DNA of 64,000 nucleotides from Longimicrobiales bacterium (GCA_965248195.1 CBDFIQ010000001.1:1280001-1344000), one strand, 5' to 3'. Shown: positions 15,743 to 19,677, numbered from the stretch's first letter. Notes: generated by a model from the sequence alone, not told the origin. A program made the numbers and translations.

Positions 15743-16318
15743 CTAGCGGTTCCTCAGATATTCTCTCGAATCCGCCTCGTCCTTCAACGGAACCACCTTG
15801 TCCGGATCGACCCGGATCATGACGTACCTGATATGATCATCGATCCTCGTGAACTGGTGGCCGGTACCGGCAGGGATGACAAGAATGTCACCCGCCGACA
15901 GCTGGTGGGTCGTGCCATTACGGATCTCAGTGGCGTTGTGACCCGGTCCGTTCAAGAACTGGACGGCACGGTTATTCGCCGGTCTCGGCACCGCATTGAC
16001 GAGCTCGGAGCCTGTCACGTTCGTCCCGGATCCGCTGATCACGTAATAGACTTCGGTGACGAGGTCGTGCTCGGCGACCCCCCCTGGTTGCTCCAATCTT
16101 CCCCGATGAGAAATGGCGATCTGCACTTGTGACTTGCCGATGTCCAGAGATCTAACCTGTTGATCGGCACTAGCGACCTCGAGATACTCTTGGATCTCCT
16201 CGGCGCTGACGTACGTGGACTCGCAGTCCTCGCAGAAGGTCTGTACCTCTTGCCCCACCGACCGACCGAGGACAAAGGTCCCCACAAAGGCCGGGACCAA
16301 TAGCATCGCTGTTTTCAT
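15743..16318 (-). CDS. Secreted cupin-domain protein
   Basis: AEHDLVTEVYYVISGSG and LSAGDILVIPAGTGHQF cupin motifs; AAGGAGAGG RBS before ATG 16318. Confidence 0.8.
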   Translation of the reverse strand: MKTAMLLVPAFVGTFVLGRSVGQEVQTFCEDCESTYVSAEEIQEYLEVASADQQVRSLDIGKSQVQIAISHRGRLEQPGGVAEHDLVTEVYYVISGSGTNVTGSELVNAVPRPANNRAVQFLNGPGHNATEIRNGTTHQLSAGDILVIPAGTGHQFTRIDDHIRYVMIRVDPDKVVPLKDEADSREYLRNR

Positions 16319-16519
16319 GACCTCTCCTTTAGCAGACGCCAAGAACTTTCCATTTCCCGCAGTGGGAGTCCATTCTGCTTCCGACGCGAATGGCGGGGCC
16401 TCTGGATCGCAACATGCAGGAACGATGTGAGCCGCGACAGGGGGAGGCCGCTTGGCGACCGACGCGCTCCTCCACTATTTTGTGCAGCTACCGCCGCTGG
16501 CCTGATGCGCTGGCCGCGG

Positions 16520-16541
16520 CTGTACTCCTTCAACAGCCTTC
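16520..16541 (+). repeat. Solo copy of the MITE terminal repeat
   Basis: CTGTACTCCTTCAACAGCCTTC, 21/22 identical to the MITE right end at 19978-19999. Confidence 0.8.
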
Positions 16542-16560
16542 TTCAAGAACCGAGGAGCCC

Positions 16561-16977
16561 ATGCCGCGGGTGACCATCACCAGAGAGGTCCACTTCAGCG
16601 CGGCGCACCGCGTGTTCAATCCCGAGTGGAGCGACGAGCGCAACTTCGAGGTGTTCGGGCCGTGCGCCAATCCCAACTGGCACGGACACGATTATGTGCT
16701 CTATGTGGCGGTCGAGTCGGAGCTGGATCGGGACACGGGCTTTGTCATGGACTTCAAGGACTTGAAGTCGGTCGTGGAATCCCGCGTCGTGGAGGACATG
16801 GACCACAAGAACGTGAATCTCGACGTGCCGTGGATGGAAGGACTCATCGCGTCTGCCGAAAACATCGTCGTCGCGATCTGGGACCGGCTCGTAGACGGCC
16901 TGCCCGACGGTGTGAAGCTCGCAAAGCTCACCCTGTGGGAGACGCCCCGCCATTACGTGGAGTACTCCGGTGAGTAG
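16561..16977 (+). CDS. 6-pyruvoyl-tetrahydropterin synthase (COG0720, PTPS-II type)
   Basis: [14 protein letters not shown] (Cx5HGH), GFVMDF, AENI, LWET; GAGGAG RBS before ATG 16561. Confidence 0.9.
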
Positions 16978-17560
16978 CGACCTCTCAGGGGCGGCGTTCG
17001 AGGAGCTCGTGGCCGAGATGATCCGGCGGCTCGGGGATGACCCCGAGCGAGAAGGGCTCAAGCGGACACCCGAGCGCGTGGCGAAGAGCCTGGCGTTCCT
17101 CACGCAGGGCTACGGGATGAAGTTCGAGGACGTCGCCAACGGGGCGCTCTTCGAGGACTGCCACCGGAACATGGTTCTGGTGAAGGACATCGAGATGTAC
17201 TCGCTGTGCGAACACCATCTCCTGCCCTTCTTCGGCAAGGTGCACGTCGCCTACATCCCTAACGGCAAGATCGTGGGGCTGTCCAAAATCGCCCGCCTGG
17301 TCGAGGTCTATGCTCGCCGCCTTCAGGTGCAGGAGCGGATGACGGAGCAGGTGGCCCAAGCGATCTGGGAAGGGGTCGAGCCGGAGGGAGTGGGCGTCGT
17401 GGTGGAGGCCTACCACCTGTGCATGATGATGCGGGGCGTGCAGAAGCAAAACTCGAAAACGATCACCTCCGCCATGCGGGGGTCGTTTCTCAAAGACAAG
17501 ATGACGCGCGACGAGTTTCTGAGTCTCTGCATGACCGACCACAATCCTCTCTCGCAGTGA
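16970..17560 (+). CDS. folE: GTP cyclohydrolase I
   Basis: [49 protein letters not shown]. Confidence 0.97.
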
Positions 17561-17645
17561 GCGATCCACGGCCTGCGATTTCTCGGTGAGCGATCTACGG
17601 CCTGCGATTTCTCAGTGAGCGATCCACGGCCTGCGGATTTCCTCG
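17557..17645. repeat. 29-bp unit x3 at the folE stop / SDR start
   Basis: GTGAGCGATC(C/T)ACGGCCTGCG.. at 17557, 17586 and 17615. Confidence 0.95.
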
Positions 17646-18343
17646 AAGGTGTCACCGCCTTGGTGGTGGGTGCCAGCCGCGGCATCGGTGAAGCCACAGC
17701 CCGAGTCCTGGCGGCCGCTGGGGCGCGAGTCTACCTGGCGGCACGCTCGATGGAGCGGCTCGAGGCGCTCGCTGAGGAGATCGGGGGCGTGCCCCTCCCG
17801 CTGGATCTAGAAAACGTCGGGTCGGTGGGGGCCGTCCTGCAAGGACTCCTGTCCGAGCTTGGAGGGGCGCCCGACATCGTCGTCAACGCCGCCGGGGTGT
17901 TTTCCTTGACTCCGGCGGCGGACACTTCAGTCGAAACGTTCGAGCAGGCCCTCGCGGTCAACTTGGGTGGGCCGTTCGCGGTCATCCGGGCTGTGCTTCC
18001 GGCCATGATCGCCCGGGGCTCCGGTTCGGTAGTTACGGTTGGGTCGGTTGCGGGACGCAAGGGGTACCCCGGCAATGCAGCCTACTCGTCGGCGAAGTTC
18101 GGCCTACGGGGGCTACACGAGGTATTAGCGGCGGAGCTCCGCGGTACAGGCGTCCGCTGTTCCCTGATCGAGCCGGCGGCGACGGACACGAAGCTGTGGG
18201 ATGCCTTGGATCCCGATTCGGACCCCAAGCTCCCCGACCGATCACAGATGCTTCGCCCCGAGGACGTTGCCGAGTCGATTCTGTTCGTGTGCACCCGCCC
18301 CGAGGGCGTTCAGATTCCCGTCCTTGCCATCGAGCACGACTGA
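17615..18343 (+). CDS. Short-chain dehydrogenase/reductase, sepiapterin-reductase-like by context
   Basis: GASRGIG, NAAG, catalytic S and YSSAK; directly follows PTPS and folE. Confidence 0.88.
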   Translation: MSDPRPADFLEGVTALVVGASRGIGEATARVLAAAGARVYLAARSMERLEALAEEIGGVPLPLDLENVGSVGAVLQGLLSELGGAPDIVVNAAGVFSLTPAADTSVETFEQALAVNLGGPFAVIRAVLPAMIARGSGSVVTVGSVAGRKGYPGNAAYSSAKFGLRGLHEVLAAELRGTGVRCSLIEPAATDTKLWDALDPDSDPKLPDRSQMLRPEDVAESILFVCTRPEGVQIPVLAIEHD

Positions 18344-18356
18344 CCCGTCTCCTTCC

Positions 18357-19022
18357 GTGCACATCCTGCTTACTGACCGGCTGATTTGCCCCCGCTGTGG
18401 GCCGGGGTTCGGCCTGATCCTCATCGCCGACCGCCTGGAGAACAGGCGGGTGATCGACGGATCGCTGGGATGCCCGAACTGTCGCGACCGGTTTCCGGTC
18501 GAGGGGGGCTTCGGCGATTTGCGACCTCCGCCCCGGAGCACCCGGGACGACGCTCCCGAGCTCGGGCCTCCGGCTTCTCCGCCGGCGATGGAGGTAGCCG
18601 CGCTTCTGGGCCTCACCGACGGGCCGGGGAATGTGGCTTTGATCGGCGGCATGGCGGGGCACGCCACCACGCTCGCGGGGTTGGTTCCGGGCGTCGAGTT
18701 CGTTGGGATCGCTCCGGGCCTTCGTGGATGGGAAGAAGGAGAAGGCGTGAGTCGGATGACCACAGGAGCTTCTCTCCCGTTCAGCAGTGGGAGCTTGCGC
18801 GGCGTGGGGCTGTTTGCCGATGGAGAACCCTCGATAGCCGGCGAATTGGCTCGTGTACTGGCCCGCGACGGGCAGATCGCGGTGTGGGGTGCGGGGCAGG
18901 GTGGGGTGCCGGGTGGTGAGCAGGGTGCCGTGACGGAGTGGGAGAAGGCGCTGAGATCAGAGGGGCTCGATGTGCTCGCGTCCGATGGGAAGGCGGTGGT
19001 GGTCAAGCGAACGACCCCATGA
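18357..19022 (+). CDS. Trm112-like zinc-ribbon fused to a degenerate class I methyltransferase-like domain
   Basis: GTG 18357: MHILLTDRLICPRC...GSLGCPNCRDRFPV; later LPFSSGSL and ELARVLARDG. Confidence 0.7.
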   Translation: MHILLTDRLICPRCGPGFGLILIADRLENRRVIDGSLGCPNCRDRFPVEGGFGDLRPPPRSTRDDAPELGPPASPPAMEVAALLGLTDGPGNVALIGGMAGHATTLAGLVPGVEFVGIAPGLRGWEEGEGVSRMTTGASLPFSSGSLRGVGLFADGEPSIAGELARVLARDGQIAVWGAGQGGVPGGEQGAVTEWEKALRSEGLDVLASDGKAVVVKRTTP

Positions 19023-19185
19023 GGGCGCCGTTGCGCAGAGGACGCCGTTGCGCCTAAGGGCGTCGTTGCTCGTCGTTGCGCCGAATTTCGGGCCCCTCTA
19101 ACTTCGATCAGAACCGATACATGTGTTGCGGGACCGAGAAATGTCCCGTTTCGCCGCACTATTCTCGTGGCTGAGCTTCCTCTCC

Positions 19186-19677
19186 ATGGCGTGGTGGCAG
19201 AAGGTTTTCGGCGGCTCCGGTGAGGCTGAAAGGGTCGCATACTACGACGAGGGCCTCGCGCTCATCGCCGAGGACAAGATCCATGAAGCCCTCACGTCTT
19301 TTCGCCTGGCGCTGAAGACGTCCCCTGGTGATGTCGTGGTGCTTCAGCAAATCGCGATGGCCTACACGCGAATCGGGATGACGGACGAAGCAGAAAAGAC
19401 CTATCGGCACGTTCTCCAAAAAGACCCGCAAGCCGCAGGCGCCCACTATGGGGTGGCGTTCCTGCTCGTCCGGAGTCGCCGTGAAGCCGAGGCGGTTCCG
19501 CATTTGCGCGCATTCTTGGAAAACGCCCCGGCTGGGAAGGAAGCCTCCGAACATGTTTCGCATGCCCGCGAAACGCTTGCCGGTCTGACGGGGGAGGTGG
19601 GGAAGGGCGGTCAAAGCGGGCAGGCGGGGGGGTCCAAGTCCGAGAGCCTCGACCTGGGGCCGGATGAGCTCCTCTAG
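19186..19677 (+). CDS. Tetratricopeptide repeat protein
   Basis: TPR helices (YYDEGLAL..EAL..FRLALK..P, AHYGVA). Confidence 0.82.
   Translation: MAWWQKVFGGSGEAERVAYYDEGLALIAEDKIHEALTSFRLALKTSPGDVVVLQQIAMAYTRIGMTDEAEKTYRHVLQKDPQAAGAHYGVAFLLVRSRREAEAVPHLRAFLENAPAGKEASEHVSHARETLAGLTGEVGKGGQSGQAGGSKSESLDLGPDELL

Follow-up and report, generated by a model that had tools for sequence, protein, structure and literature searches.

Three adjacent genes of a Longimicrobiales bacterium, lying within a 64,000-nucleotide stretch of its genome (the window, meaning the whole stretch analysed), raise the question of whether they encode a complete route from GTP to tetrahydrobiopterin (BH4), as an earlier note on this DNA had proposed. 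We favor this answer: from genes, motifs, synteny and co-occurrence we infer a complete pathway, in which the three genes would probably convert GTP by way of 6-pyruvoyl-tetrahydropterin to a BH4-type pterin, with no isomer assigned, and the organism likely makes BH4 or a related pterin. An operon of this type is already described in print and is ordinary as a pathway. PTPS-II is reported to cluster physically with BH4 pathway genes, which links it to the pathway (PMC5041015), and its clustering with folE is described (PMC5445326); the former also assigns about 50 bacterial COG0720 proteins to BH4 synthesis from literature and co-occurrence with sepiapterin reductase. A literature search of titles and opening abstracts, with few subscription journals among the sources, gave no paper on a biopterin-type pathway in Gemmatimonadota, which does not imply absence from print. 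The present analysis extends the predicted pathway to most sampled genomes of this widespread, mostly uncultured phylum, a modest gain given that the pathway is already known, and corrects a likely queD mis-annotation; the residual interest lies in a variant reductase pocket and a missing pterin user.

Gene layout and the first two steps

The window belongs to a genome (G000) of 4.86 Mb in two contigs, 91.8% complete. The first gene, a PTPS-II of COG0720 (16561..16977, + strand; 138 aa), starts with an ATG that is preceded at a distance of 3 nt by the ribosome-binding site GAGGAG (16552..16557, + strand). folE, encoding GTP cyclohydrolase I (16970..17560, + strand; 196 aa), starts with GTG and overlaps the PTPS stop by 8 nt, and the SDR gene (17615..18343, + strand; 242 aa) follows after a gap of 54 nt. 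All three ORFs are intact and on the same strand, as had been claimed, and the SDR segments quoted in support were found in the translation. The gap is made of a triplication: a 29-nt tandem repeat in three copies (17555..17641, + strand) spans both the folE stop and the SDR start. Copies 1 and 2 form 10-codon mini-ORFs (17557-17589 and 17586-17618), each of which overlaps its successor at a GTGA, and this chain could relay translational coupling across the interval between the folE stop and the start of the SDR gene. A contig of run X14, from a close strain, skips 58 nt at the triplication and so holds a single copy, and a different in-frame 15-nt repeat expansion is seen at the folE-SDR junction of genome G011. 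A promoter and terminator scan of 16200-19300 gave no sites that would define the ends of the operon; in the RNA runs, searched as contigs only, at most 0.07 of the words were matched.

The first protein is assigned from its PF01242 match (E 1e-32), its motif and its likeness to animal PTPS. The best PDB matches are the human (3i2b, E 3e-35) and rat (1b66, E 5e-34) enzymes, and entries named 6-carboxytetrahydropterin synthase match at about 1e-6 only. In alignments with rat and human PTPS, the residues H16, C35, H41, H43, D81, H82, E100 and E127 are identical, and we take these to be the metal-binding and catalytic residues. The C-ANPNW-HGH motif noted earlier is present in the translation as C35-ANPNW-H41-G-H43, a Cx5HGH arrangement, with N-P-N-W ahead of HGH and no ExxHGH folate motif; in most of this genus HGHDY replaces the HGHNY of PTPS-II. 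The motif rules on which that claim had relied agree with PMC5041015, where CxxxxxHGH marks PTPS-II, CxxxHGH QueD and ExxHGH the folate types; the PTPS-II motif is also given in PMC5445326. Compared with other members of the PTPS-II subfamily (rat 1b66, human 3i2b and that of Synechococcus sp. PCC 7942), the window protein is alike in CxxxxxHGH and active-site residues and is a single-domain bacterial form. Classed by motif as PTPS-II, it very probably makes 6-pyruvoyl-tetrahydropterin.

FolE matches PF01227 (E 3.5e-75; the only such match in the window genome) and scores 252.3 bits over its full length against TIGR00063, for which the cut-off is 181.6. Its conversion of GTP is established family chemistry. 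With high confidence from family knowledge, FolE would supply dihydroneopterin triphosphate, and with high confidence from family knowledge and the motif, PTPS-II would turn it into 6-pyruvoyl-tetrahydropterin. The SDR is then predicted, with moderate confidence from residues and context, to reduce both side-chain carbonyls with NADPH.

The third gene and its relation to Chlorobium sepiapterin reductase

The third protein (PF00106, E 1.2e-47) is, by its residues and context, a likely sepiapterin-reductase-like NADPH reductase. The locus resembles the L-threo-tetrahydrobiopterin pathway of Chlorobium (Chlorobaculum) tepidum in having the same three enzyme types, with an NADP(H)-type SDR that carries the catalytic triad and a Trp at the W196 position of the Chlorobium sepiapterin reductase (CT-SR; PDB 2bd0). 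The proposed resemblance of the SDR itself to CT-SR holds for the triad and the Trp196 equivalent and breaks down at Phe99, the substrate loop, the tail and the overall similarity rank. Counted from the alignment, S145, Y158, K162 and W196 of CT-SR correspond to S144, Y157, K161 and W195 of the window SDR; a Ser-Tyr-Lys triad is common to most SDRs. F99 of CT-SR (G95+4) aligns with L98 (G94+4), and the invariant Phe of the window protein, F96, sits two residues earlier, at G94+2. Both W195 and F96 are invariant in all 19 aligned orthologues, and R44 is also invariant. Compared with CT-SR, the loop that follows the Trp has about 6 extra residues (57 profile positions vs 51 residues of 2bd0) and the C-terminal tail lacks about 7, the protein ending level with residue 237 of 244. 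In CT-SR, Phe99 has been called indispensable for substrate binding, a short substrate loop and a long C-terminal extension are characteristic, and the loop and tail are linked to the stereochemical outcome (PMC7520308). The stereoisomer therefore cannot be predicted from that of Chlorobium, given the differences in the Phe, the loop and the tail, which determine it. On sequence, one diagnostic CT-SR residue is matched and others are not, and we do not file the window SDR as a Chlorobium-type member; it is a candidate sepiapterin reductase whose pocket differs, of use for work on stereochemistry.

General similarity searches place 2bd0 among many SDRs. It was not within the top 60 of 494 PDB matches of the single window sequence, ranked 24 of 295 with a profile of 19 orthologues (A1) and 8 with a C-terminal profile, and the solved SDRs scoring above it include clavaldehyde dehydrogenase 2jah and 2ehd. 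Structure comparisons used an AlphaFold model of the window SDR (pLDDT 92.9): 2bd0 ranked 10 by VIA-align (Z 31.2 against a top value of 32.5, rmsd 1.7, 224 aligned, 27% identity), where a span of 2.3 Z units takes in 50 entries, and was absent from the Foldseek matches listed to rank 50. As judged with this model, Foldseek and VIA-align do not separate SDR subfamilies, and the ESM Atlas gave generic SDR clusters only. No protein named sepiapterin reductase occurs in the best 120 of 4591 homologues, and the nearest named relatives are Longimicrobiales or Gemmatimonadota records at 44-82% identity. The best NCBIfam model is NF005672 (PRK07454; 163 bits, cut-off 234), which carries only the name 'SDR family oxidoreductase' and is also the best model for three Trp-motif metagenomic SDRs that adjoin pterin genes. 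Neither pteridine reductase model, PRK09134 or PRK09135, appears in the top 25 of the 214 NCBIfam matches, so that the window SDR does not class with the pteridine (ring) reductases of the FolM/PTR1 type, which have an Arg in the glycine-rich motif.

The outranking of 2bd0 by generic SDRs and the unmatched Phe99 lend something to the best-surviving alternative, which we nonetheless consider unlikely: that FolE and PTPS-II make 6-pyruvoyl-tetrahydropterin, which other reductases or none would finish, the SDR being a carbonyl reductase with no part in this route that is lodged in a conserved gene string. Of the 121 genomes sampled across the phylum, 85 carry an SDR orthologue (E<=1e-55), and a PTPS gene or folE lies within about 1.5 kb in all 30 of the best loci fetched, that of the window included. 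When synteny in relatives was checked, as had been suggested, folE followed PTPS-II in 29/29 loci and the SDR was in the same locus in 18/29, so that the arrangement is not due to chance; two of the 11 loci without the SDR are explained by contig ends. The locus also lies inside a long conserved gene string, whose TPR, OsmC, acyl-CoA ligase and CutA neighbors are of unrelated function and also syntenic, as an unrelated SDR would be, and synteny by itself is weak evidence.

Among 41 genomes, which are kin so that the counts are not independent, 27 have PTPS-II (counted at E<1e-40) and the SDR, nine PTPS-II only, one the SDR only and four neither. PTPS-II thus accompanies the SDR in 27 of 28 genomes, and the exception (G018) is 78% complete with the SDR at a contig start. 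The four genomes with neither gene retain folE and a CExxHGH-type paralogue, and three of them the Trm112-like neighbor, so that PTPS-II and the SDR are missing together while their other neighbors mostly stay, which argues against an unrelated SDR. A further point against it is that at loci whose fetched flank lacks folE (L056, L260, L261, L267 and L269) the SDR still stands beside PTPS-II. In six genomes (G003, G008, G016, G019, G021 and G024), of which G016 is assembled as one contig and rated 100% complete, the three genes are kept and searches for folK, folB, queC, phhA and the PTPS-I/III paralogue gave no match. Where kept, the SDR evolves under purifying selection, with dN/dS of 0.09-0.17 in 6/6 pairs.

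Within the genus, the last step of the predicted pathway appears to be in the course of being lost. Eight of the 11 congeners, among them G005 (one contig) and G006 (seven contigs), gave no SDR match at E<=1e-40, and all eight keep PTPS-II and folE. The SDR is likewise missing from G032, where both other genes are retained; these absences count in favor of an unrelated SDR. Deletion scars, in which the final SDR codons stand directly after the folE stop, are seen in G001, G004, G005 and G006 (L004:2480-2560, L007:860-935, L008:860-935 and L009:862-935). The G001 scar is unlike the other three, and there may therefore have been more than one deletion event; one contig of run X9 has a skip of the same kind, of 763 nt. 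In the SDR-less congeners the dN/dS of PTPS-II is 0.05-0.25, and purifying selection on PTPS-II and folE was found in 3/3 tested. Since the SDR is deleted while the first two genes stay constrained, the third step would be optional in this genus.

SDRs of other lineages that share the Trp motif likewise adjoin PTPS or folE, a further point against an unrelated SDR. At least 120 metagenomic loci were picked solely by the 10-residue Trp motif, three of them without an SDR match; among the matches listed, PTPS or folE is nearby in 42/47 loci with at least 1 kb upstream and in 16/70 shorter ones. In a control of more distant SDRs, which is rough and unmatched to the Trp-motif loci, PTPS-II or folE occurs in 0/72 loci within flanks of up to 4 kb and the W195 equivalent in 0/69 scored. 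The metagenomic set is redundant: among the matches listed, 68 full-length SDRs fall into eight clusters at 50% identity, pterin neighbors occur in three of these (50/52, 6/8 and 1/1 members), and most of the other-lineage proteins have Phe at the CT-SR position. A profile of 12 other-lineage Trp SDRs has 2bd0 as its top PDB match (218.6 vs 216.2 bits), a profile built from the query and 29 Trp-bearing representatives places it at rank 5 (229 bits vs 235 for the best single-domain match) and a control profile of 14 non-Trp SDRs at rank 46; selection on Trp biases these ranks somewhat. In a quick tree of 104 rows, from which 2bd0 was left out, the 20 SDRs from Gemmatimonadota group as a single clade (97), and all 64 Trp-bearing rows fall in a group of 67, including three non-Trp rows, at a weak SH-aLRT of 80; the nine other SDRs of the window genome lie outside this group. 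At L136-L215 (metagenomic), Trp-motif SDRs adjoin folE and dual-motif PTPS proteins (for example with LTxxHGH plus Cx2-3-HGH variants) that fit the published motif classes poorly.

If the SDR does act on this pterin, it could reduce one carbonyl only, the product being a lactoyl or oxo-hydroxypropyl tetrahydropterin of the sepiapterin type and not the biopterin diol. The pocket differences from CT-SR given above (Phe at G+2 vs G+4, the longer loop and the shorter tail), of which loop and tail are linked to stereochemical outcome (PMC7520308), lean this way, as does the viability of the SDR-less congeners. Against it, the triad and Trp match CT-SR, and all six phhA-bearing relatives have the SDR, which suits a finished tetrahydrobiopterin; we regard single reduction as doubtful.

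Use and recycling of the product

Under the favored reading of reduction to a BH4-type pterin, the question becomes what the product is for. In animals, BH4 serves aromatic amino acid hydroxylases, NOS and AGMO, whereas the search for pterin users called for by the earlier note returned no PhhA or NOS match in the window genome. phhA occurs in 6/41 genomes, all six with PTPS-II and the SDR, and PhhA is missing from 21 of the 27 genomes that have both; NOS was found in 0/5 genomes tested. With neither PhhA nor NOS found, the product most likely serves an unrecognized pterin-dependent enzyme or acts as a reductant. The sole FA_hydroxylase protein of the genome (C2:175605) was rejected as a general user: its best score is to the ornithine lipid hydroxylase OlsE, below the cut-off, and the family does not track the SDR, being present in 8/27 genomes with both genes and 4/13 without the SDR.

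Genes that could recycle the product are widespread. Pterin-4a-carbinolamine dehydratase (PCD) is found in 39/41 genomes, with two copies in the window genome, and a pteridine-reductase-like (FolM/PTR1-like) SDR also in 39/41; that of the window genome (G000:C1:1170774-1171439) was matched by a query that itself scores best against PRK09134 and PRK09135. Together the two enzymes could recycle the product, and the phylum thus presents a case of pterin synthesis and recycling genes with no known pterin user. The surroundings of the PCD genes and of the pteridine reductase gene show no obvious pterin user; a few kb away from one of the PCD genes, an insertion-sequence-like ORF pair is repeated in three tandem copies (G000:C1:929639-933632). 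We raise as a tentative extension, prompted by the 21 of 27 pathway genomes without PhhA, that most Gemmatimonadota might make an unconjugated tetrahydropterin with a reductase pocket unlike those of animal and Chlorobium sepiapterin reductases, possibly yielding another stereoisomer, and might keep the recycling set (PCD and pteridine reductase) for an unrecognized pterin-dependent enzyme. Were this so, the SDR deletions in the genus would be a natural knockout series for finding the user enzyme.

C. tepidum glycosylates its product with a pteridine glycosyltransferase (PMC5683033), whereas the three-gene cluster contains no glycosyltransferase gene; bacterial pterin glycosides exist with unclear function (PMC3546692, PMC5683033). 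The gene just downstream of the SDR (18357..19022, + strand) encodes a Trm112-like protein with CxxC...CxxC and, as a lead only, a possible degenerate methyltransferase-like domain. It was set aside as a pterin methyltransferase, being kept in 3/4 genomes without PTPS-II and the SDR, and is probably a syntenic neighbor outside the biopterin branch. The protein is Gemmatimonadota-wide, its gene comes right after the pterin cluster at most of the loci examined, and its second region has a weak methyltransferase likeness (Atlas 0.83-0.84), again a lead only.

Folate, queuosine and other COG0720 members

A role of the cluster in folate synthesis, in which the PTPS bypasses FolB and/or the SDR replaces dihydrofolate reductase, is very improbable. 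FolE is common to folate synthesis, FolA was not found in the window genome and is over the cut-off in 2/41 genomes, and in many relatives a fourth gene with CExxHGH, a PTPS-I/III hybrid motif, comes right after the SDR. Against this stand the lack of ExxHGH in the window PTPS and a separate folB-folK/folP cluster at C2:736 kb of the same genome, which FolE would also feed; with FolB and FolK/FolP present, no folate bypass is needed. A dihydrofolate-reductase-like role for the SDR is unlikely because 39/41 genomes, that of the window included, carry the separate FolM/PTR1-like SDR, despite folA being over the cut-off in so few. The SDR is moreover kept in all eight genomes without a folK match (the weak match of G023 being counted as present).

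The CExxHGH paralogue occurs in 21/41 genomes and was not found in the window genome at E<=1e-20. It is largely complementary to folB across the 41 genomes (paralogue alone 18, folB alone 11, both three, neither nine), and therefore probably supplies folate where it is present. These paralogues (L033:6798-7181 and relatives) pass the QueD cut-off in genomes that lack queC over its cut-off and mostly lack folB, so that folate synthesis is their probable role and a queD annotation would be mistaken.

That gene 1 is itself queD, making queuosine precursors, is the least probable reading of all: a COG0720 gene beside folE is common for queD and tgt is present, but the motif is Cx5HGH and not Cx3HGH, the score against the QueD model TIGR03367 is 64 bits (cut-off 89.25), and queC gave no match in the 91.8% complete window genome and is above the cut-off in 1/41 genomes, all in keeping with the earlier view of the gene as PTPS-II. 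tgt was found in 5/5 genomes tested, that of the window among them, and its presence with no queC found would fit queuosine salvage.

The only other COG0720 gene of the window genome (C2:2927462-2927860) was ruled out as queD, since it carries FGPAQ, the PTPS-IV signature given in PMC5445326. By ORF reading alone, its cluster (G000:C2:2925635-2932320) holds dehydrogenase, glycosyltransferase, methyltransferase (more than one), CDP-alcohol phosphotransferase-like, RibD-like and creatininase-like genes. A stand-alone second PTPS-II paralogue with CxNPHGHGH, about 45-50% identical and seen in none of this genus, is present in many genomes from the two other families that were searched, as at L047:5382-5786, L048:4994-5410, L049:2596-2997 and L050:5067-5480.
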